32,000 nucleotides of DNA from Crocosphaera subtropica ATCC 51142 (GTDB lineage: Bacteria > Cyanobacteriota > Cyanobacteriia > Cyanobacteriales > Microcystaceae): the NCBI RefSeq assembly GCF_000017845.1, contig NC_010546.1:1140001-1172000 (forward strand), given 5' to 3'. Both the position numbers and the translations under genes were made by a program. Below are positions 1,570 through 10,409 of the stretch, piece by piece. Each line of letters opens with the position of its first letter. Within the stretch, counting starts at the first letter, position 1. The notes beneath the pieces were generated by a model. The model was not told where the DNA came from, searched no databases, and saw nothing but the letters and a program-made list of their open reading frames with translations.

Positions 1570-2109
1570 TCAGTTTCCCCATAAAACTTTTATTAAAATA
1601 TTAAGTGTAATGCAAATTAAAGATAAAGCAATCAACCAGACAGCTATATTAAGCTTTCTTCCTTTTTCAAAGCCTAGTTTCTCATATTCTTCCTCAGCCT
1701 GAACCCAACCACTAATTATATAGTCTGAAATATCATTTTTATCAGCAAAATACCATCGATCTTTCATCAATGCTTTTGGAGAAATAACAGTACCGCTTAA
1801 TTTTGTTGTTAATCCAAGACATAATATTAAAGCTGAACTTCCTAAAGCTATATATGTTATTATTTGTAATAGTAGACAAGAGTAACAAGCAAAATCTTCA
1901 ATAGTTACTTTTTCTGATAAGTCACTAGCAAATCTGACTAAAACTCCAGTAAATGCCAAAAAAACACTCATTTTTGTATCTAATCTGTTTAAACTTTCTC
2001 GTTGTAATTTGAGAAATTCCTCTGTATAACTATAGATTAAATCAGTATTTGTTGATTTTTCTGCTGAAGTTGAATTATTATCGTTAGAGTCGTTAATTTT
2101 ATCAGTCAT
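1570..2109 (-). CDS. Hypothetical 3-TM membrane protein (179 aa), with a layout reminiscent of small TM effector proteins (DUF5706/Pycsar-effector-like); family assignment tentative
   Basis: Hydrophilic N-terminus, then ...LNRLDTKMSVFLAFTGVLV (TM1), CLLLQIITYIALGSSALILCLGL (TM2), a soluble stretch, and LNIAVWLIALSLICITLNILI (TM3). Very AT-rich. Confidence 0.6.
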   Translation of the reverse strand: MTDKINDSNDNNSTSAEKSTNTDLIYSYTEEFLKLQRESLNRLDTKMSVFLAFTGVLVRFASDLSEKVTIEDFACYSCLLLQIITYIALGSSALILCLGLTTKLSGTVISPKALMKDRWYFADKNDISDYIISGWVQAEEEYEKLGFEKGRKLNIAVWLIALSLICITLNILIKVLWGN

Positions 2110-2278
2110 GTCTAATAATAACCCTGAAAGTAACCCTAAGTCTGATGATCAAGTTTCGCTATCCTTAAAAAATTCTCAATTTGGTCAAATTAAGGAAAGT
2201 GGAAGTAGAATTAGAGTAGTAGATCCTAAAGATACCACATTTGAAAGGTATGATGGTGATCCACCTGCACAACGTTAA
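2108..2278 (+). CDS. Possible small ORF (56 aa, hydrophilic), below the ORF-track length cutoff
   Basis: ATG at 2108 overlaps the CAT start of the divergent 3-TM gene (CATG). Encodes MSNNNPESNPKSDDQVSLSLKNSQFGQIKESGSRIRVVDPKDTTFERYDGDPPAQR with stop TAA at 2276-2278. A hairpin with a T-run follows about 25 nt downstream. No obvious SD. Confidence 0.2.
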   Translation: MSNNNPESNPKSDDQVSLSLKNSQFGQIKESGSRIRVVDPKDTTFERYDGDPPAQR

Positions 2279-2303
2279 TTGTAAGCTAATGGTTATTGAT
2301 TTT

Positions 2304-2334
2304 AAAAGTTGGGTTTTCTTTTACCCCAACTTTT
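2304..2334. terminator. Hairpin AAAAGTTGGG-N11-CCCAACTTTT, possibly a bidirectional intrinsic terminator
   Basis: 10-bp inverted repeat whose GTTGGG/CCCAAC core is flanked by A-run and T-run, so it reads as stem plus U-tract on either strand. Confidence 0.35.
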
Positions 2335-2361
2335 AGTCAACTTTAATAATACGATAAAACA

Positions 2362-2390
2362 TTGCAAAATACTAATATGATTTTTAAAAT
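2362..2390 (+). promoter_or_regulatory. Candidate sigma70-type promoter TTGCAA-N17-TAAAAT for the DUF29-DUF29-Uma2 cluster
   Basis: -35 TTGCAA at 2362-2367, 17-nt spacer, -10 TAAAAT at 2385-2390. This would give a very short leader before ATG 2403. The AT-rich context makes chance matches likely. Confidence 0.25.
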
Positions 2391-2402
2391 TTAGGTTTCA
2401 AT

Positions 2403-2876
2403 ATGACAGTAGAAATCAATCAATCAATAGACACTTTATATGATCAAGATTATAATTTATGGTTAGAAAAAACCATTAAACAATTAAAATCAAGCAAGTT
2501 TTCTGAGATAGATATAGAGAACTTAATCGAGGAATTAGAAAGTATGGGAAGAAGTGATAAACGTGCGCTTAAAAGTCTTCTTACCCGACTGTTTGAACAT
2601 TTACTAAAAATAGCTTATTGGGAAACAGAAAGAGAATATAATTATCGAGGATGGAACGGAGAAATTCAAAATTTTCGCATTCAAATTAGAGAATTACTGA
2701 AAGATAGTCCTAGTCTTAAGGTTTATTTAGTGGAAATTTTTGAGGAATGTTATCAAGATGCTAGAAAAATAACTGTAAAAAAAACTGGTTTAGAATCTGA
2801 TACTTTTCCTGATGAACCTATCGCTAACTTAGAACAAGTTTTAGACGATGATTGGCTTCCTAATAAATCAAAATAA
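2403..2876 (+). CDS. DUF29 family protein (helical bundle; family expanded in cyanobacteria)
   Basis: N-terminal LYDQDYNLWLEKT, ...IDIENLIEELESMGRSDKRALKS..LL.HLLK, and C-terminal FPDEPIANLEQVLDDDWLP match the DUF29 consensus as I recall it. Confidence 0.85.
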   Translation: MTVEINQSIDTLYDQDYNLWLEKTIKQLKSSKFSEIDIENLIEELESMGRSDKRALKSLLTRLFEHLLKIAYWETEREYNYRGWNGEIQNFRIQIRELLKDSPSLKVYLVEIFEECYQDARKITVKKTGLESDTFPDEPIANLEQVLDDDWLPNKSK

Positions 2877-2888
2877 CTAACTTAATAA

Positions 2889-3368
2889 ATGCTTATGTCT
2901 ATTACATCCATTACTGAAAACCTAAAATCTTTATACGAAACTGACTATGATAAATGGGTTTTACAAACTGTTCAACGATTACAAGAAAAAAAATATGAAG
3001 CAATAGACTGGGAAAATTTAATAGATGAGGTAGCAGACTTGAGTAGAAGAGAAAGGGATAAATTAATGAGTTTGTTAACTCGTCTTTTTGAACACTTATT
3101 AAAGTTAGCTTATTGGGAATCTGAAAGAGACTATAATTATCGAGGATGGAACGGAGAAATCCAAAATTTTCGCATTCAAATAAAGAGATTACTTAGAAAA
3201 AGTCCTAGTCTTAAGGTTTATTTAGTGGAAATTTTTGAGGAATGTTATCAAGATGCTAAGAAAATTACTATCAAAAAAACTGGATTAGAATCTGATCTTT
3301 TTCCTGATAAACCTATTGCTAACTTAGAACAAGTTTTAGATGATGATTGGTTGCCAACGATTAAATAA
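2889..3368 (+). CDS. DUF29 family protein, tandem paralogue
   Basis: LYETDYDKWVLQT...IDWENLIDEVADLSRRERDKL. The 3' half is almost identical at nucleotide level to 2403-2876. Confidence 0.85.
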   Translation: MLMSITSITENLKSLYETDYDKWVLQTVQRLQEKKYEAIDWENLIDEVADLSRRERDKLMSLLTRLFEHLLKLAYWESERDYNYRGWNGEIQNFRIQIKRLLRKSPSLKVYLVEIFEECYQDAKKITIKKTGLESDLFPDKPIANLEQVLDDDWLPTIK

Positions 3369-3379
3369 TTAAGTTTATT

Positions 3380-3871
3380 ATGATTACAATTGCTAAATGG
3401 TCAGTAGAAGATTATCATAAAATCATTGAAACAGGTATTCTGAATGATCGGCCTGTTGAACTATTAGAAGGAACCATTATCGAAATGTCTCCAGAAAGTC
3501 CTTTACACCGTAAAAAATGTGATGCAGTTGCTGACTATTTACGGGACAAGTTAAAGGGTTATGCAAAGGTTTATGAAGCGCATCCTATTACCCTTTCAAC
3601 CTCGGAACCTGAACCGAATATTGCTATTGTTAGATTACCTGTTTCTTTGTATGATAATCATCATCCTTACCCCGAAGATATTTACTGGTTAATCGAAATT
3701 TCTGATAAAACTTTAACAAAAGATTTACAACAAAAACGGTTAATTTATGCTCAAGCAGGAATTAAAGAATATTGGGTGATTGATGTAGAAAAAAGAGAAT
3801 TAAAGGTTTTTAAAAACCTATTAAATAGGAATTATCAACAAGAGGAAACTTATACAAAATGGACAATATAA
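3380..3871 (+). CDS. Uma2 family (DUF820) PD-(D/E)xK putative endonuclease, probably decaying (catalytic D to N change, plus an in-frame stop before the conserved C-terminus)
   Basis: WSVEDYHKIIETGIL...VELLEGTIIEMSP, EPEPNIAIV (consensus EPEPD), and LIEISDKTL...K..YAQAGIKEYWVID. The frame continues after TAA 3869-3871 as SLAFPEIELSVEKMI* up to 3919. Confidence 0.85.
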   Translation: MITIAKWSVEDYHKIIETGILNDRPVELLEGTIIEMSPESPLHRKKCDAVADYLRDKLKGYAKVYEAHPITLSTSEPEPNIAIVRLPVSLYDNHHPYPEDIYWLIEISDKTLTKDLQQKRLIYAQAGIKEYWVIDVEKRELKVFKNLLNRNYQQEETYTKWTI

Positions 3872-3923
3872 AGTCTTGCTTTTCCTGAGATTGAATTATC
3901 TGTAGAAAAAATGATTTAATATA

Positions 3924-3949
3924 TTGTAGGGTGGGCAATACCCACCTTA
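3924..3949. repeat. Palindromic REP-like element TTGTAGGGTGGGCAATACCCACCTTA (copy B)
   Basis: Same element as 1523-1548. It lies just after the extended Uma2 frame ends at 3919. Confidence 0.7.
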
Positions 3950-3969
3950 CTACTCCAATCACTTAATTA

Positions 3970-5580
3970 ATGATAATGATTGACTTTATTACCGCGGCAT
4001 CTAAGATATTAAGTTTCATACAAGCGTTGCCTAAATTTACTAATAGTTTATATGAGCAAGGGCAAAAAAATCAAGAAATTAATAATATTTTACAGCAGTT
4101 GAATTTATCTCCTACGGAAATTCCTGATAATGTGGATACTGTTTATATTTATGCTTTGATAGATTATGGTGTATCTGAGTCTTACGCTATTTTAGAAATT
4201 CTCAGAAACAAGGAGATTAAGGATAGTTTTTGGACTGCTTATACTAATAATAATCATTTAGATTTTTTAAATAAAGTAGAAGAATTTTTAAAGCAAGAAC
4301 CCGGGTTAAAAGAAGAAATTATCAACAATAATATCGAGCTTGCAGTTGAATTAGAGAAATTTGCGGATATCTTTATTTCCTATGCAAAAAAAACGACTTC
4401 AGCTAAATTTAAAATTGATGGGGTTTATCCTGAATGGGATTTTAATGTTATTCCTAGTGAGTTTAGGGCTTTAATTGAGGAAAAAACGGGTTTATTTTGT
4501 GGTAGAAGTTTTGTTTTTCAGGAGTTTGATAAATTTATTAATAACCAATCTAAAGGATATTTTACAGTGATTGGTGATGCAGGAATGGGTAAAAGTTCTA
4601 TTGCTTCTAAGTATATTTTGGCGAAAAAGGTTCCTTGTTATTTTAATATTGCCACTGAAGGAAAAAATAAACCTGAACAGTTTCTAAATAATATTCGGCA
4701 ACAATTAATTATACGTTATAAATTACAAAATCAAGAGAATGCTGATTTACGGACTTTATTACAAAAAGCAAGTGAAAAGTTATCAGAAAAACAAAAGTTA
4801 ATTATTCTGGTTGATGCTTTGGATGAAGTGGAACAAGAAGGAAGTAGTAATCTCTTAGATTTACCTCAAAATCTGCCCAATAGGGTCTATTTTTTGCTGA
4901 CAAGACGACCTTATAATTCTCAAACTCAACGATTAACAACGTCTCCTGATACGACCTATGAAACGTTAGATTTAAAAGAGGAAAAATATCAGAAACTTAA
5001 TGAACAAGATGTTAAACAATATATTGGTTTATTTTTACAAAATGATCAACAGTATAAGGATAAATTGCAGAAATGGCTTAAAGATAGGAAGATTGATGAA
5101 TTGACTTTTATTGAAGAAGTAGCTAAGAAAAGTGAAAATAATTTTATGTATTTACGCTATGTTTTACCTTGGATAGCTGAGGATAAATATAGTGATTTAA
5201 CGTTACAAGGTTTACCTACAGGTTTACAAGAATATTATGAACAGCATTGGCAACAAATGAACATGGAGGAAGAAGCAAACGAAACTAAGGTTAAAATCTT
5301 CTATATGTTAGTTAAACGAGGTGATGAGATTTCCTCAGAGATGATTGCTAATATTTTAGATTTAGATGAATATGATGTGAGTTCGGTGTTGGAAAATAAG
5401 GATTGGTTTGAATATATAACCATAAGGAAAGATAAAACTGAGGATAAAATTTACTATCGTATTTATCATAAAAGTTTCTTAGAGTTTCTTCAAGATAAGC
5501 GTAAATTGAGTAAGGGACGGAGGTTATTTAAAGAAGTTAACGATAAAATGGCTGAGTATATGTTAAAGGAAATGAATTAA
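3970..5580 (+). CDS. NACHT-like STAND P-loop NTPase with a ~170-aa helical N-terminal domain of unknown function
   Basis: Walker A GDAGMGKS (4573-4596), Walker B LVDALDE (4810-4827), LLTRRP (NACHT TSRP-like motif), and a C-terminal winged-helix-like YYRIYHKSFLEFL. Confidence 0.8.
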   Translation: MIMIDFITAASKILSFIQALPKFTNSLYEQGQKNQEINNILQQLNLSPTEIPDNVDTVYIYALIDYGVSESYAILEILRNKEIKDSFWTAYTNNNHLDFLNKVEEFLKQEPGLKEEIINNNIELAVELEKFADIFISYAKKTTSAKFKIDGVYPEWDFNVIPSEFRALIEEKTGLFCGRSFVFQEFDKFINNQSKGYFTVIGDAGMGKSSIASKYILAKKVPCYFNIATEGKNKPEQFLNNIRQQLIIRYKLQNQENADLRTLLQKASEKLSEKQKLIILVDALDEVEQEGSSNLLDLPQNLPNRVYFLLTRRPYNSQTQRLTTSPDTTYETLDLKEEKYQKLNEQDVKQYIGLFLQNDQQYKDKLQKWLKDRKIDELTFIEEVAKKSENNFMYLRYVLPWIAEDKYSDLTLQGLPTGLQEYYEQHWQQMNMEEEANETKVKIFYMLVKRGDEISSEMIANILDLDEYDVSSVLENKDWFEYITIRKDKTEDKIYYRIYHKSFLEFLQDKRKLSKGRRLFKEVNDKMAEYMLKEMN

Positions 5581-5594
5581 ATTCTCCAAACCTC

Positions 5595-5619
5595 GTAGGG
5601 TTTTAATACTATTAAACCC
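5595..5619. repeat. Palindromic element GTAGGGTTTTAATACTATTAAACCC (type 2, copy 1)
   Basis: Stem GGGTTT(T)AAT/ATTAAACCC. A near-identical copy lies at 7994-8018. Confidence 0.65.
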
Positions 5620-5656
5620 ATTTAGTGAAGCCAAAAGTTATTTTATTTTAACTGTC

Positions 5657-5721
5657 ATTGCGAGGAGGCAAAACCTTGTTTGGGGATGAGTTTGAGCCTT
5701 AATTTCTGCCTCCGAAGCAAT
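5657..5721. repeat. Imperfect long hairpin ATTGCGAGGAGGCA...TGCCTCCGAAGCAAT (MITE/SDR-like)
   Basis: GGAGGCA/TGCCTCC and ATTGC/GCAAT arms flank about 36 nt. It resembles the ATTGCGAGG...CGAAGCAAT dispersed repeats common in cyanobacterial intergenic DNA. Confidence 0.45.
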
Positions 5722-5783
5722 CTCTAACAACACCAAACCCCCTGAATTAAATTGTATGTTAACCAAGGAGAAGACATGAAGTA

Positions 5784-7997
5784 ATGGGACAAATAGCGAC
5801 TCACTTAGCTGGAAAAAATGCAGAATTTCAACGCTTTTTTTTGGGTCAGTTTCCAGAAGTTCAACTGGAAGCTGGAAACCTGGAACAATATTATGAAAAA
5901 TTAACTAATTTTGATTTCATTTCCCTCAAAATCCATCATCCTAAGTTTGGCGTAGAAGCATTAATTAGGGATTATGATTTAATTGATGAAGTAACAGAAC
6001 AAACACTAAACTCCGAACAACTGAAAACCCTCAAATTTATTCAACGAACCTTACAATTATCCTCCCATATTTTAAATGAAGACCCCACCCAGTTAGTAGG
6101 ACAATTATGGGGAAGATTACAGGGGTTTGACTATCCAGACATTAAGACATTATTGAAAGAGGCAGAAGATAGCCACCGTAACAAACTTTGGTTACGTCCC
6201 CTAACTGCTAGTTTAACCACTCCTGATAGTCCTCTCATTCGTACCTTGACCGGTCATAACAACATGGTAAATGCAGTATCTGTCACCCCAGATGGGTTAA
6301 AAGCAGTTTCTGCTTCTGCTGACAAAACCCTGAAATTGTGGGATTTAACCACAGGCAAAGAACTGTTAACTTTAACCGGTCATAACGACTGGGTATATGA
6401 AGTGTGTGTCACCCCAGATGGTTTAAAAGCCATTTCTACTTCGTCTGACAAAACTCTAAAATTGTGGGATTTAACCACAGGCAAAGAACTGTTGACCTTC
6501 ACCGGTCATAACAACTGGGTAAATGCAGTATATGTCACCCCAGATGGCTTAAAAGCCGTTTCTACTTCATCTGACAAAACCCTAAAATTGTGGGATTTAA
6601 CCACAGGTAAAGAACTTTCTACTTTTAGGGGTCATAACGACATGGTATATGGTGTATCTATTACGCCAGATGGGTTAAAAGTGGTTTCTGCTTCTCGTGA
6701 CAAAACTCTAAAATTGTGGGATTTAGCCACAGGCAAAGAACTTTCTACTTTTAGGGGTCATAACGACATAGTATATGGTGTATCTATTACGCCAGATGGG
6801 TTAAAAGTGGTTTCTGCTTCTCGTGACAAAACTCTAAAATTGTGGGATTTAGCCACAGGCAAAGAACTTTCTACTTTTAGGGGTCATAACGACTGGATAT
6901 ATGCAGTGTCTGTCACCCCAGATGGCTTAAAAGCAGTGTCTGCTTCTCGTGACAAAACCCTGAAATTGTGGGATTTAACCACAGGCAAAGAACTTTCTAC
7001 TTTTAGGGGTCATAACGCCTGGATATATGCAGTGTCTGTCACCCCAGATGGCTTAAAAGCAGTGTCTGCTTCTCGTGATCACACCTTAAAGCTATGGGAT
7101 TTAGCCACAGGAAAAGAACTTTTTACCTTTAGAAGTCATAACGACCGAGTATATGCAGTGTCTGTCACCCCAGATGGCTTAAAAGCGGTTTCTGCTTCTC
7201 GTGATCACACCTTAAAGCTATGGGATTTGCCTACAGGAAAAAAACTTTCGAGTTTAAGGGGTCATAACGACCGAGTATATGCAGTGTGTGTCACCCCAGA
7301 TGGCTTAAAAGCAGTGTCTGCTTCCCGTGACCAAACCCTAAAATTGTGGGATTTAACCACAGGCAAAGAACTTTCTACCTTTAGAAGTCATAACCAATGG
7401 GAATATGCGGTTGTTATTACCCCTGATGGATTAAAAGCGGTTTCTGCTTCTCGTGATCACACCTTAAAGCTATGGGATTTGTCTACAGGAAAAAAACTTT
7501 CGAGTTTAAGGGGTCATAATGACCGAGTATGTGCGGTATCCATAACCTCAGATGGGTTAAAAGTGGTTTCTGCTTCTCGTGATCACACCTTGAAGTTATG
7601 GGATTTAGCTATAGGAAGAGAACTTTATACCTTCGAGGGTCATAACGATATGATATATGATGTATCCATAACCCCAGATGGCTTAAAAGCGGTGTCTGCT
7701 TCACTTGACGAAACCCTGAAACTGTGGGATTTAGGCACAGGGAGAGAATTATGGACTTTCACCGGTCATAACGCCTCGGTAAATGCAGTATCAGTGACCC
7801 CAGATGGGTTAAAAGCGGTGTCTGCTTCACTTGACGAAACCCTGAAAGTGTGGGATTTAGGCACAGGGGAAGAACTTGTTACCTTTAGTGGGGATAGTCC
7901 AATGATTTGCTGTAGCGTGTCTCCTGATGGTTTAACTGTTGTTGCTGGAGATAGTTCAGGAAAGGTTCATTTTTTGCGTCTAGAAGAAAGTTTGTAG
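5784..7997 (+). CDS. WD40-repeat protein: ~155-aa helical linker domain plus 14 WD40 repeats (two predicted 7-bladed propellers)
   Basis: 13 units of GHN.....V.(V/I)TPDGLK.VSAS.D.TLKLWDL.TGKEL plus one degenerate unit. The N-terminal part (..YYEKLTNFDFISLKI..GVEALIRDYDL..WLRPLTASLTTP) is the kind of linker seen in NACHT-WD40 fusions. SD AAGGAG at 5765-5770. Confidence 0.95.
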   Translation: MGQIATHLAGKNAEFQRFFLGQFPEVQLEAGNLEQYYEKLTNFDFISLKIHHPKFGVEALIRDYDLIDEVTEQTLNSEQLKTLKFIQRTLQLSSHILNEDPTQLVGQLWGRLQGFDYPDIKTLLKEAEDSHRNKLWLRPLTASLTTPDSPLIRTLTGHNNMVNAVSVTPDGLKAVSASADKTLKLWDLTTGKELLTLTGHNDWVYEVCVTPDGLKAISTSSDKTLKLWDLTTGKELLTFTGHNNWVNAVYVTPDGLKAVSTSSDKTLKLWDLTTGKELSTFRGHNDMVYGVSITPDGLKVVSASRDKTLKLWDLATGKELSTFRGHNDIVYGVSITPDGLKVVSASRDKTLKLWDLATGKELSTFRGHNDWIYAVSVTPDGLKAVSASRDKTLKLWDLTTGKELSTFRGHNAWIYAVSVTPDGLKAVSASRDHTLKLWDLATGKELFTFRSHNDRVYAVSVTPDGLKAVSASRDHTLKLWDLPTGKKLSSLRGHNDRVYAVCVTPDGLKAVSASRDQTLKLWDLTTGKELSTFRSHNQWEYAVVITPDGLKAVSASRDHTLKLWDLSTGKKLSSLRGHNDRVCAVSITSDGLKVVSASRDHTLKLWDLAIGRELYTFEGHNDMIYDVSITPDGLKAVSASLDETLKLWDLGTGRELWTFTGHNASVNAVSVTPDGLKAVSASLDETLKVWDLGTGEELVTFSGDSPMICCSVSPDGLTVVAGDSSGKVHFLRLEESL
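6252..7994 (+). repeat. Coding tandem repeat, 126-bp period x 14 (WD40 units)
   Basis: Unit starts fall at 6252+126k. Units 4 (6630-6755) and 5 (6756-6881) differ by one nucleotide (ATG vs ATA). Confidence 0.95.
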
Positions 7998-8018
7998 GGG
8001 TTTAATACTATTAAACCC
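7994..8018. repeat. Palindromic element GTAGGGGTTTAATACTATTAAACCC (type 2, copy 2); its TAG is the WD40 stop codon
   Basis: The stop TAG at 7995-7997 lies inside the repeat. Confidence 0.65.
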
Positions 8019-8053
8019 ACCACAACATAGATTAAACCGTTAGTTAACTTATT

Positions 8054-8347
8054 ATGAATATCAATCAATTAATTCAGGAAAAACGAGAAGAAATTATTAT
8101 GATTGCGGCTAAACACGGCGCGAGTAATCTGCGTATTTTTGGTTCCGTTGCCAGAGGTGAAGCAGACGAAAACAGCGACCTTGATTTATTAATTGATTAT
8201 GACAGTAAAAAAAGGAGTCCTTGGTTTCCCTTGAGATTAATCCGAGAGTTAGAAACATTGTTAGGTTGTAAAGTTGATATTGTTACCGAACAAGGATTAA
8301 AAGATAGAATTAAAGAGCGTGTGTTACAAGAAGCTATGAGGTTATAA
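8054..8347 (+). CDS. Minimal nucleotidyltransferase (MNT, COG1669-type, the antitoxin half of HepT/MNT modules), orphan
   Basis: FGSVARGEADENSDLDLLIDY (GS...D.D NTase motif), ...CKVDIVTEQGL. No DUF86/HepT ORF lies on either side. Confidence 0.85.
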   Translation: MNINQLIQEKREEIIMIAAKHGASNLRIFGSVARGEADENSDLDLLIDYDSKKRSPWFPLRLIRELETLLGCKVDIVTEQGLKDRIKERVLQEAMRL

Positions 8348-8372
8348 GATATGAACAAAAATTAAAGGTTTT

Positions 8373-8401
8373 GTTGGATTTCGTTCCTCAACCCAACCTA
8401 C
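8373..8401. repeat. Dispersed cyanobacterial repeat motif GTTGGATTTCGTTCCTCAACCCAACCTAC
   Basis: GTTGG...CCAAC hairpin. I recognise the ...CTCAACCCAACCTAC motif as a common intergenic repeat in cyanobacteria. It occupies the position where a HepT gene would be expected. Confidence 0.4.
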
Positions 8402-8435
8402 ATCTAAGAATGATAATTAATTAAACAAAAAAATT

Positions 8436-9518
8436 ATGTCTCAAATTAAAACTATCAAAAATACCAGAGGACACCCCGAATATTTACAAACTATTATTAC
8501 AGAAAAAAGCCGTGATTTTGTCGGGCGTGATTTTGTGTTTTCTACTATTAATAACTTTATCAATAATTACGATAAAGGTTATTTTACTCTTATTGGTGAA
8601 CCAGGAAGCGGAAAAAGTGCGATTCTTGCTCAATATTTCAACCAAAATAATAATGTTGTTTACTACAATTTTGATCCCCTCCAACCCCCTTTATTAAGGG
8701 GGGAGAATTGGGAAAACTCCTTAGAAAAGGAGAGAGATTATGAAACTTTCTTAAAAATTGTCAATCATCAATTAATCGATATCTTATCGAGTTTAGAAAC
8801 AAATCAACTTGAGAATGAAGTAGAAAATGATAATAACTTGTTCTCATTATTACTACAAAAAATTAGTGATAAATTACCCCAAAACCAACCCTTAATTATC
8901 ATTATTGATGGTTGTCATAAACTTGACTTAAACCAATATAAAAGAGGCGCAAACCTTCTTTATTTACCCCGTTATCTCCCCAAAAATGTCTATTTAATCC
9001 TTAGTCGTCGTCCTTTTCCTAACAATAAATCAAATTTATTAATAGAAACCCCATCACAAATCTTAAACTTATCCAACTATCCCGAAGAAAATAAAAAAGA
9101 CATCCAAACTTATCTAAAAACCTATGGAAAAAATCAAGAAATATTAAAAAAACTTGACAAAAACGAAACCAATTTTATGTATGTCAGTGAAATTATAAAA
9201 CAGCCTAATTTACCCCCTGAAACATTACCAGAAAGCTTAGAAAACTATTATCAAGAACATTGGAATGATATGAATAAAACAATTGAAAAAAAACCCGAAC
9301 TTAGCTTACAAATTTTACAATGTTTATTACAAGAATACTCATTAATTTCCCTAGAAACCATTGCCGAAAACTTAGACCAAGATGAATATGATATTGAGAT
9401 AATATTAGAAGACTGGCGAGAATTTTCACACCTAGAAACTAGAGAAAATATCCCATATTATCAATTTTATCATTCTAGTTTTCATAATTGGTTAAAAGCA
9501 AAAGTCAGTGAAATATAA
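8436..9518 (+). CDS. NACHT-like P-loop NTPase, a paralogue of 3970-5580 lacking the N-terminal domain, with a degenerate Walker B
   Basis: FVGRDFVFSTINNFINNYDKGYFTLIGEPGSGKS aligns with FCGRSFVFQEFDKFINNQSKGYFTVIGDAGMGKS. Walker A at 8595-8618. The Walker B region reads IIIIDGCHKLD. ILSRRP, NFMY, LENYYQEHW and YYQFYHSSFHNWL are all shared with the paralogue. Confidence 0.75.
   Translation: MSQIKTIKNTRGHPEYLQTIITEKSRDFVGRDFVFSTINNFINNYDKGYFTLIGEPGSGKSAILAQYFNQNNNVVYYNFDPLQPPLLRGENWENSLEKERDYETFLKIVNHQLIDILSSLETNQLENEVENDNNLFSLLLQKISDKLPQNQPLIIIIDGCHKLDLNQYKRGANLLYLPRYLPKNVYLILSRRPFPNNKSNLLIETPSQILNLSNYPEENKKDIQTYLKTYGKNQEILKKLDKNETNFMYVSEIIKQPNLPPETLPESLENYYQEHWNDMNKTIEKKPELSLQILQCLLQEYSLISLETIAENLDQDEYDIEIILEDWREFSHLETRENIPYYQFYHSSFHNWLKAKVSEI
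8676..8720. repeat. Palindromic repeat-like segment embedded in frame in the NTPase paralogue
   Basis: CCCCTCCAACCCCCTTTATTAAGGGGGGAGAATTGGGAAAACTCC with hairpin CCCCCTT-TATT-AAGGGGG (8685-8702). It is translated as PLQPPLLRGENWENS, a block absent from the paralogue at the aligned position. Confidence 0.5.
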
Positions 9519-10409
9519 TTAATAATTCAGAAACTCTCTAACATGACTTAAATATGTTTCTTTATCTTCCAACATGGGAAAATGTGCCGTTTTCGCTATT
9601 TCTACATATTCAATCTTATCATTTAATTTAGCGGCTTCTCGTCCCATTGCAGCAGGAATAATAATATCTTTTTCCCCAGAAACTAACAATGTTGGCACAG
9701 AAATCTCTGCAAACTTTTTGGGCATGGTTTCTACTGCTTTTTTACTCACCGATGTATAAATCGTTCCTAGTGCTGCTTCATAATCTGCTAAAATAAAATC
9801 CTCTAAAAAAGCAATTTTTTCTAATTTATCAATAGGACGATGTAAAAACCTAGACATAAATAAACGAGGAGCAAACGGTACTTTTAAAAACCAATTATAA
9901 CGAAACTTAACCACATATCCCCCAAACAGATGAAAGGTATCAAACGCCAACTTATTATATTCAAAAATACCATTACAAGTAAGAATAGAACGCTCTACTT
10001 TTTCAGGATACATAGTGCTAAATAAAGCCCCAACAGAAGCACCCATCGAGTGACTATTCATATAAACTTTGTCAAGTCCTAACCCATCTAATAATGCCTT
10101 TAAATCTTCTGCATATTCTTCTAAATCATAACTCAAATTTAACGGATTTTCTGGCAATTTTGAACGACCAAACCCCCGTAAATCATACAATAAACAATCA
10201 TAATTATCACTTAAAGCTTCTGCGGTACTGCGCCAATATCTTGCTGATCCACCCCATCCATGAACAAACACCATTACAGGCTTTTCTATGATTCCTGGCT
10301 GTCGTATCCATTCATAATAATGATCCACCCCACGCACCTTAATAATGCCTGTCTCTTGCTCAATTTCTTCGGGTTTCGTTTCAGTGGTAGATAGATTATT
10401 CTCCATCAT
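9519..10409 (-). CDS. Alpha/beta-fold hydrolase
   Basis: VFVHGWGGS (oxyanion region) and the nucleophile elbow SHSMGAS. Its stop is flush with the preceding convergent gene (TAATTA). Confidence 0.85.
   Translation of the reverse strand: MMENNLSTTETKPEEIEQETGIIKVRGVDHYYEWIRQPGIIEKPVMVFVHGWGGSARYWRSTAEALSDNYDCLLYDLRGFGRSKLPENPLNLSYDLEEYAEDLKALLDGLGLDKVYMNSHSMGASVGALFSTMYPEKVERSILTCNGIFEYNKLAFDTFHLFGGYVVKFRYNWFLKVPFAPRLFMSRFLHRPIDKLEKIAFLEDFILADYEAALGTIYTSVSKKAVETMPKKFAEISVPTLLVSGEKDIIIPAAMGREAAKLNDKIEYVEIAKTAHFPMLEDKETYLSHVREFLNY

Follow-up and report, generated by a model that had tools for sequence, protein, structure and literature searches.

NLR/STAND receptors of animals, plants, fungi and bacteria have almost always been studied as single polypeptide chains, in which the inhibitory hold of the sensor is hard to separate from activation by a ligand. 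The closest described bacterial relatives of the locus analysed here are NACHT proteins reported by Kibby et al. ("Bacterial NLR-related proteins protect against phage", bioRxiv 10.1101/2022.07.19.500537), the study in which the NNH domains were named and in which the bacterial NACHT proteins tested protected against phage. Its Table S1 places NNH5 in NACHT clade 11, within fused architectures such as NNH5+NA-iREase1+NACHT+Pentapeptide+BetaPropeller, records TIR, caspase, SIR2, PNPase, trypsin, EAD4 or HTH in the same N-terminal slot of this clade, and has no short "NNH5+NACHT" architecture among its entries. The sensors of the Avs proteins characterised so far are mostly TPR-like. The present analysis concerns a stretch of 32,000 nucleotides (nt) of the cyanobacterium Crocosphaera subtropica ATCC 51142 (contig NC_010546.1, positions 1,140,001 to 1,172,000; hereafter the window) and, within it, a module of three genes: gene 1, encoding a nucleoside triphosphatase (NTPase) of NACHT type that bears NNH5, gene 2, encoding a WD40 protein that opens with a segment resembling the second helical domain (HD2) of STAND proteins, and gene 3, encoding another NTPase. 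The split, three-component form of a NACHT NLR-like module is what is newly added here, its fused forms and NNH5 being already known.

Relatives were gathered by scanning one genome per prokaryotic species, which gave 536 related stretches, and the best 80 of these together with one Crinalium locus were examined. The carriers of the module among them include Nostoc, Anabaena, Scytonema, Tolypothrix, Calothrix, Okeania, Trichodesmium, Coleofasciculus, Chroococcidiopsis and Crocosphaera. The HD2-WD40 gene comes next after gene 1 in 73 of the 75 loci with at least 700 nt of downstream DNA, and tblastn with residues 1-155 of gene 2 mostly matches from query residue 1. A homologue of gene 3 (37-72% identity) stands after the WD40 gene in 50 of the 54 loci with at least 6.5 kb of downstream DNA, and the order is always gene 1, gene 2, gene 3. 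We lean towards the view that the three polypeptides together form an NLR-like (NACHT-clade STAND) receptor assembled in trans, probably serving conflict or immunity. A sequence-only reading of the window had described a binary system: its separation of sensor and switch on different polypeptides holds, and its count of two components gives way to the conserved third gene. The open reading frames (ORFs), the motifs, the 203-nt gap, the different frames and the 14 WD40 repeats all lie where that reading had placed them (Table 1).

The first question is whether the separation of NTPase and sensor is an original property of the module. The best 120 homologues of gene 1 are all 462-595 amino acids (aa) long and none carries repeats. 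The sequence-only reading had held the boundary of this ORF to be native and had proposed a search for fused and split orthologues; close relatives proved to be split, and fused relatives were found only at a distance. In 56 of 73 loci no more than 30 nt, and typically 0-1 nt, separate gene 1 from gene 2. The typical junction in other genera reads ..AAGGAGATGGAATAA(A)ATGGGG, so that the last codons of gene 1 carry the Shine-Dalgarno sequence of gene 2. When gene 1 and residues 1-200 of gene 2 were concatenated, they gave one collinear high-scoring segment pair with the fused 1226-aa STAND-WD40 protein P0291, residues 161-700 (34% identity, E 9e-89), with a gap of ~12-16 aa at the junction. Combined with the HD2-like start of gene 2, this collinearity places the break between the winged-helix domain (WHD) and HD2.

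Two other accounts of the junction have to be weighed. The locus could be a pseudogene, a freshly broken fused NACHT-WD40 gene whose 203-nt gap is the scar of an insertion or frameshift; the 11-nt direct repeat and the hairpin in the gap fit a small insertion, and more distant relatives are indeed fused. Nevertheless, the same ORF boundary, the same start of gene 2 and intact frames recur in more than 70 loci of many genera, gene 1 still stops at the same TAA, inside the repeat, when one 170-nt repeat unit is removed, and the uniformly short homologues and the low identity of the closest fused relative found point the same way, which leaves this account hardly credible. Alternatively, programmed recoding (readthrough or frameshifting) at a tight junction could make a single fused protein, in which case there would be no true binary system. 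It would fit the stop and ATG lying 0-1 nt apart in many loci and the shared frame of both ORFs in some of them, e.g. in Crinalium (L002). However, the frame relation between genes 1 and 2 varies among loci (in frame, +1, overlapping by 8 or 14 nt, or 4-6 nt), which makes a conserved recoding signal for a fused product unlikely, the gap reaches 50-280 nt in several lineages, and the conserved ATG-GGx start with its upstream Shine-Dalgarno sequence argues for re-initiation; we judge recoding very improbable. Taken over the loci compared, the split between genes 1 and 2 is native and ancient.

The wide junction in the window seems to be a local departure from this pattern. Junctions of the Crocosphaera lineage have been widened to 51-210 nt by differing small inserts, and the 203-nt spacer is such an expansion of a junction that normally measures 0-1 nt. 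Just ahead of gene 2, AAGGAG at 5765-5770 is followed after 5 nt by a two-codon mini-ORF (ATG AAG TAA, 5776-5784) and after 13 nt by the gene-2 ATG, which the stop of the mini-ORF overlaps. The spacer is consistent with a small insertion. A miniature inverted-repeat transposable element was considered as its source and rejected: no second copy was present in the window or in the PLSDB plasmids, and the inserts of other Crocosphaera differ. Different small hairpin inserts were seen at the same junction in the Crocosphaera loci L003, L027, L030 and L032.

Gene 3 is devoid of an N-terminal domain and shares ~32-33% identity with the NTPase part of gene 1. As the sequence-only reading had noticed, it ends at the equivalent position, shortly past the winged-helix YH motif and ~20 aa earlier than gene 1. 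Its junction with gene 2 often measures 1-6 nt or is an overlap. Walker A, the RRP (sensor-1) region and the WHD His are retained, and the Walker B of 53 orthologues follows the pattern hhhhD[GAS/D]x[D/N/H]x (IIIIDGCHKLD in the window), in which the Glu position of the 'DE' pair is never acidic. Reasoning from general NACHT and AAA+ catalysis, the constant lack of this Glu leads us to predict that gene 3 binds NTP with impaired hydrolysis. The copy in the window has a 15-aa insertion PLQPPLLRGENWENS (aa 81-95) that most orthologues are without, and a His in its degenerate Walker B where most of them have Asp or Asn.

The distance matrices of gene 1, of the N-terminus of gene 2 and of gene 3 are correlated (r 0.84-0.89, Mantel p 0.001), as would be expected of genes passed on together, and paralogous modules occur twice in some genomes (L013 with L067, L070 with L075). 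From its recurrence and position, gene 3 would be a conserved third member of the operon, and the three genes appear to form one ancient, vertically co-inherited operon. One could instead suppose that genes 1 and 3 encode independent receptors sharing one sensor gene, or that gene 3 is a functionless, decaying duplicate: it lacks an output domain, its Walker B is degenerate, it is split from gene 2 by a nucleotidyltransferase gene in the window and by Uma2 in 16 Nostocales loci, it is absent from four of the 54 loci, and the fused relative and the EAD4 variant described below show no equivalent of it nearby. Against this, gene 3 is intact (330-430 aa) in 50 of the 54 loci, with Walker A, RRP and the WHD His conserved, it often abuts or overlaps gene 2, and it has diverged about as much as gene 1 (means of 0.41 and 0.36), which speaks for purifying selection. 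Independence or decay is accordingly rated as quite improbable. Individual loci have a different fate. L046 (8007-10152) is apparently decayed, a deletion seeming to join gene 1, the last WD40 repeats and a gene 3 fragment; L040 (12352-12531) holds an apparently decayed module of which only a C-terminal fragment of gene 3 is left; and L004, apparently decayed too, has neither gene 2 nor gene 3 downstream, and a 1567-aa WD40-containing ORF upstream.

The product of gene 1, 100% identical to the "AAA family ATPase" WP_009543979/ACB50498 of Crocosphaera subtropica (ATCC 51142), is a STAND NTPase composed of a nucleotide-binding domain (NBD), a first helical domain (HD1) and a WHD, ending at the winged helix. 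In an alignment of 24 sequences the G, G, GK and S positions of its Walker A are invariant and the D and A nearly so. The NACHT family of Koonin and Aravind (2000) is said to be distinguished by a Walker B in which the Asp is followed by a small residue and, two residues further along, by an acidic pair. The DALDE of the gene 1 Walker B is kept in all 72 orthologues, and the V-E after it in 70 of the 72. Pfam models NNH5, AAA_22 and NPHP3_N (31.9 against a cut-off of 24.8 bits) match above their cut-offs and AAA_lid_TANC1, which corresponds to HD1, matches as well; the NACHT model (PF05729) stays below its gathering score of 26.7 bits, with 24.1 for gene 1 and 16.5 for gene 3. A full-length AlphaFold2 model of gene 1 (predicted local distance difference test, pLDDT, 82) has its best Foldseek match in the Protein Data Bank (PDB) with Apaf-1 (1z6t, E 2.5e-7), and also matches the plant NLRs NRC3, ZAR1 and Sr35 and MalT, Dark and ORC/Cdc6; a search of PDB sequences with the gene 1 profile returned no match. 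The winged-helix motif Y..YH.SF is conserved, and the model has a beta-hairpin and a helix there. Beyond it the C-terminus keeps one conserved helix (aa 519-535), which is found in the fused protein too.

Gene 2 brings together a linker and a repeat array. Its residues 1-155 give a weak match to the Pfam model APAF1_C (HD2), at E 2.9e-4 and 21.2 bits against a cut-off of 22.8, and this sub-threshold match recurs in seven of ten gene 2 orthologues. An exhaustive phmmer search with the same residues returned 1393 clusters. In all of the best 55 the segment lies at the N-terminus of the protein; in 12 of the 150 clusters listed, from rank 56 downward, it is internal, with its first residue at 283-851 and a total protein length of 522-1780 aa. 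Eight of the proteins with an internal segment were compared with gene 1, and in six of them a gene-1-like NTPase module precedes the segment. The sequence-only reading had taken the opening of gene 2 for the segment that links NTPase and propellers in fused relatives, and its internal position in these distant proteins, as well as the collinearity with P0291, bears this out. Residues 76-698 of gene 2 align by phmmer with residues 534-1168 of human Apaf-1 at E ~1e-56, an alignment that spans only the C-terminal part of HD2 and both propellers, and a shorter stretch of mouse Apaf-1 aligns at E ~1e-62. The best PDB match of gene 2 is the repetitive WD40 protein 2ymu of Nostoc punctiforme (E 2e-154); a PDB search with the HD2 profile alone matched only the first WD40 strand and gave no match in HD2.

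Tandem Repeats Finder describes the array as 13 copies of a 126-nt period with 83% matches, and by homology its 14 blades probably form two 7-bladed propellers. Variation within the array is concentrated on nine of the 42 repeat positions, where nonsynonymous and synonymous differences stand at 562:76, compared with 718:680 at the other 33. Along the repeat, the nine positions fall immediately behind GHN, on either side of the Asp in SxDxT, and within the segment between blades. Where its ORF looks intact, gene 2 encodes between 238 and 983 aa, and two tandem HD2-WD40 genes are present at eight loci. These patterns suggest that the WD40 repeats have sensor-like properties.

The ~170 aa at the N-terminus of gene 1, which the sequence-only reading had left unassigned, contain a known domain: residues 13-144 match NNH5 (PF22736) at E 8e-33 and 113.7 bits (cut-off 27), over profile positions 2-133 of 134. 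The domain is thus already catalogued by name. Its AlphaFold2 model has a pLDDT of 86 and a predicted TM-score of 0.81. An amphipathic, mildly hydrophobic helix spans its first ~20 residues; it is conserved in character and not in sequence, and might act on membranes, which is a lead only.

More can be said of the position that NNH5 holds. In the more distant split relative L091 (353-12065), a 523-aa EAD4-NTPase (E 5e-112 with the hidden Markov model of gene 1) shares 11 nt with a 748-aa HD2-WD40 gene, and the pair has a TPR-CHAT protease, another EAD4-STAND gene and a further HD2-WD40 gene as neighbours. In L090 (2536-9334), 15 nt separate a 509-aa NTPase, with an N-terminus other than NNH5, from the 1452-aa HD2-WD40 gene downstream, and this split pair adjoins genes of E2-CBASS/ThiF type (CBASS, cyclic-oligonucleotide-based antiphage signalling system). 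Profile comparison found no similarity of NNH5 to EAD4 or to the L090 N-domain. Two Crocosphaera metagenome-assembled genomes (L030 7791-9182 and L032 6221-7609) have NNH5 replaced by a polar, Q/N/S-rich low-complexity N-terminus of ~95 aa. The N-terminal slot thus appears to be modular in split relatives as it is in fused ones. The EAD4 in the slot of a related split pair suggests an adaptor role or one in effector recruitment for that slot, and NNH5 would, by analogy, occupy the output (effector or adaptor) position.

A working model of the receptor can be outlined on this basis, in which physical assembly, ligand, output and immune role are all extrapolated from Apaf-1, bNACHT/Avs and paired NLRs. 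Gene 1 would provide an NTP-dependent switch with NNH5 as its output, gene 2 an HD2 and a 14-blade WD40 ligand sensor acting in trans, and gene 3 a second switch module without an output domain. The HD2 of gene 2 might dock non-covalently on the WHD of one or both NTPases and so restore a closed, ADP-bound STAND core. A ligand, for which a foreign (e.g. phage) protein is the likeliest candidate, would bind the hypervariable face of the propellers and release autoinhibition, and nucleotide exchange would then lead to oligomerisation, probably into a hetero-oligomer of both NTPases. The clustered NNH5 domains would give the output, either through recruitment of a partner or through an activity of their own. 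Gene 3 could serve as a non-signalling, slowly hydrolysing co-protomer, that is as nucleator, helper or threshold-setter. The most far-reaching version of this model is a prokaryotic "paired NLR", in which a free HD2-WD40 sensor licenses a hetero-oligomer of two NTPases, gene 3 nucleates, caps or sets the threshold of the assembly, and NNH5 is a new executioner or adaptor fold; we offer it tentatively, as a speculation built on analogy that is rather unlikely to hold in full.

Several observations weigh against this model. At the level of the locus, the window flanks are housekeeping genes (prfC, TamB, ExbBD), a scan of positions 3300-9700 for promoters and terminators gave chance level only, and the operon is broken up in the window by the 203-nt spacer and the nucleotidyltransferase gene, so that the three genes are a putative transcription unit in C. 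subtropica. PADLOC returned no system-level match, only a partial one to Avs1b (E 7.5e-14, profile positions 206-548 of 1924) and a weak one to STAND_TPR. As to gene 3, a conserved Asp two residues past the degenerate position might preserve hydrolysis, and the Mantel correlations are equally expected if all three genes merely track the species tree. As to NNH5, Foldseek with its model gave nothing significant (best PDB match E 1.3, TM-score <0.3; best BFVD match E 0.39), so that of the earlier proposal of a novel effector or adaptor domain the lack of a structural match in PDB or BFVD is retained, while the domain itself had already been named. Nor did any of 79 modules have a second NNH5-bearing ORF within 8 kb, as in a pairing of EAD type; an adaptor partner of NNH5, if there is one, would therefore be encoded elsewhere.

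The architecture may also be as described and the role not antiviral: the module could act as an endogenous signalling STAND in the control of stress or programmed cell death, in kin recognition or allorecognition in the manner of fungal HET-E/NWD proteins, or as a regulatory STAND of MalT/AfsR type. This reading would account for the housekeeping flanks and for the lack of a match to a known defence system. It would also fit a module that is vertically inherited and found in most major cyanobacterial lineages rather than patchily, and MalT is among the structural matches of the gene 1 model. Hypervariable WD40 repeats are moreover a hallmark of the NACHT-WD40 allorecognition NLRs of fungi. 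On the other side, the module has no DNA-binding domain, and related split pairs adjoin genes of CBASS-type E1/E2 and of a CHAT protease. In addition, TIR, caspase and SIR2 effectors occupy the N-terminal slot in the fused clade, and the protection against phage by tested bacterial NACHT proteins (Kibby et al.) favours an immune role. We consider a role outside antiviral defence unlikely, though deserving attention, and keep to a conflict or immune receptor as the preferred interpretation.

Table 1. Coordinates of the three-gene module, its motifs and its neighbours in the window
Feature	Position (nt)	Strand	Remarks
Gene 1	3970-5580	+	536 aa ORF; NNH5 and predicted NACHT-type STAND NTPase (NBD-HD1-WHD), no repeat sensor of its own
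NNH5 domain (gene 1 aa 13-144)	4006-4401	+	Pfam PF22736, all-alpha, ~8 helices
Gene 1 Walker A GDAGMGKS (aa 202-209)	4573-4596	+	Motif read in the sequence
Gene 1 Walker B LIILVDALDEVEQE	4798-4839	+	NACHT-type hhhhD[GAS]hDE
Gene 1 FLLTRRP	4891-4911	+	Sensor-1 arginine region
Gene 1 winged-helix motif YYRIYHKSFLEFL	5452-5490	+	Contains the conserved His
Gene 1/gene 2 junction	5581-5783	.	203 nt; flanking ORFs in different frames
Direct repeat TGAATTAAATT, 11 nt	5573-5583 and 5743-5753		Copies 170 nt apart
Spacer hairpin	5664-5673 / 5704-5713		
Putative relic of ancestral coupled junction AAGGAGAAGACATGAAGTAATG	5765-5786		Recognisable as AAGGAGAAGACATGAAGTAATGGGA directly before gene 2
Gene 2	5784-7997	+	737 aa ORF; HD2-like helical domain and WD40 array
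Gene 2 N-terminal helical domain (~154 aa)	5784-6245	+	HD2 / APAF1_C-like linker
Gene 2 WD40 array	6246-7997	+	13 regular 42-aa repeats and one degenerate terminal repeat, i.e. 14 blades
Gene 3	8436-9518	+	360 aa ORF, cce_1152; predicted second STAND NTPase, NBD-HD1-WHD only
Gene 3 Walker A GEPGSGKS	8595-8618	+	Conserved in orthologues
Gene 3 Walker B region LIIIIDGCHKLD	8892-8927	+	Mg-binding Asp present, 'DE' pair degenerate
Three-transmembrane protein cce_1144	1570-2109	-	PycTM-like; faint/weak PycTM (PF18967) matches, small cyanobacterial family
Uma2 (PF05685) gene	3380-3871		Upstream of gene 1; other copies: L027 7331-7885, L045 10942-11517
MntA-like nucleotidyltransferase (MNT) gene	8054-8347		Type VII antitoxin family; PADLOC PDC-S09; between genes 2 and 3

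The three neighbours that the sequence-only reading had put forward as possible partners, i.e. the three-transmembrane protein, Uma2 and MNT, fall away, none of them being conserved with the module. A homologue of cce_1144 lies directly beside gene 1, immediately divergent, in L030 and L032; outside three Crocosphaera genomes it is absent from all other module loci, and it was rejected as a partner. The family adjoins prfC in the window and likewise in other cyanobacteria without the module, or occurs in unrelated contexts; given this synteny with prfC, its linkage to the module most simply reflects the insertion site of the island. One homologue (L086) adjoins two large ATPase genes. The MNT gene, after which no HEPN/HepT partner ORF was found in the window, appears as a strain-specific insertion absent from the junction in other Crocosphaera loci, and was rejected as well. 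Uma2 stands next to or inside the module in ~18 of 82 loci, in two unrelated lineages with 31-38% identity between them. In 16 loci, almost all of them of Nostocales (e.g. L045), a gene of the first lineage separates gene 2 from gene 3 and is read from the opposite strand; the second lineage stands upstream of gene 1 in the window and in L027. Uma2 recurs, yet as two unrelated lineages at two different positions, and was not retained as a core component. The Uma2 copies of the window and L027 are 89% identical, the adjacent gene 1 proteins only 55%. No other gene family was conserved around the module in the loci examined.

Two tandem DUF29 (PF01724) genes (2403-2876 and 2889-3368) stand directly upstream of Uma2 in the window, and a DUF29 gene is also near the module in Crocosphaera sp. 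XPORK-15E (L001). The [G + C] content of the WD40 array (6246-7997) is 42%, and that of other parts of the island (DUF29, Uma2, gene 1, gene 3) ~29-32%; the whole island (2110-9518) averages 34% and the remainder of the window 37%.

In the literature searched, mostly without subscription journals, there was no description of a split NACHT/WD40 operon, of cce_1148-1152, or of NNH5 beyond Kibby et al., and NCBIfam does not recognise the module. Searches for single-gene NLRs or defence genes would score this three-gene architecture as an orphan "AAA ATPase" and a "WD40 protein". With 536 related stretches in species-representative genomes, the natural split into sensor, switch and auxiliary switch, as separate and translationally coupled proteins, is widespread. 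It would offer a genetically and biochemically tractable system to study how HD2 and the repeats keep an NTPase closed, whether bacteria have hetero-oligomeric NLR assemblies of sensor/helper type, and what NNH5 does.

The fused NACHT-WD40 proteins of clade 11 (Kibby et al.) share with the module NNH5, a NACHT-type NTPase, a helical linker and WD40 propellers in the same order; the module differs from them by its split between WHD and HD2, by the absence of the NA-iREase1 insert and by a conserved second NTPase without an effector domain. The one fused relative with a readable locus stands alone, with no equivalent of gene 3. The EAD-bearing STAND conflict systems (Kaur et al. 2020, 2021) are approached by the related split pair that has EAD4 in the slot of NNH5, whereas NNH5 itself has no detectable homology to EAD4, and the module has no second NNH5 gene nearby and no MoxR-vWA core.

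The bNACHT and Avs proteins have the same logic of effector, NTPase and repeat sensor, and the NTPase core is a weak PADLOC match to Avs1b; they have been shown to act against phage, a role that is putative for the module. Apaf-1 and Dark display the order of domains that is predicted for genes 1 and 2 taken together, NBD-HD1-WHD-HD2-WD40-WD40. In contrast to Apaf-1, the Walker B of gene 1 is of the NACHT-type DALDE and not the hhhhDD of AP-ATPases, the N-domain is NNH5 instead of a CARD, and the sensor is a separate protein, with an APAF1_C match of gene 2 below the Pfam cut-off. The fungal HET-E/NWD proteins share the highly similar tandem WD40 repeats with few variable positions and a variable number of repeats, but they are fused, with HET or other N-terminal domains. 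In the paired NLRs, NAIP-NLRC4 and the plant sensor/helper pairs, as in the module, two paralogous NTPases stand side by side, one with an output domain and the other with a degenerate motif; the likeness is one of analogy, homology being limited to the STAND core, and neither NTPase of the module bears a sensor of its own. Finally, the canonical tripartite NLR has its sensor covalently C-terminal to the NTPase, whereas in the module the sensor is encoded by a separate ORF, as it is in nearly every related locus compared here.

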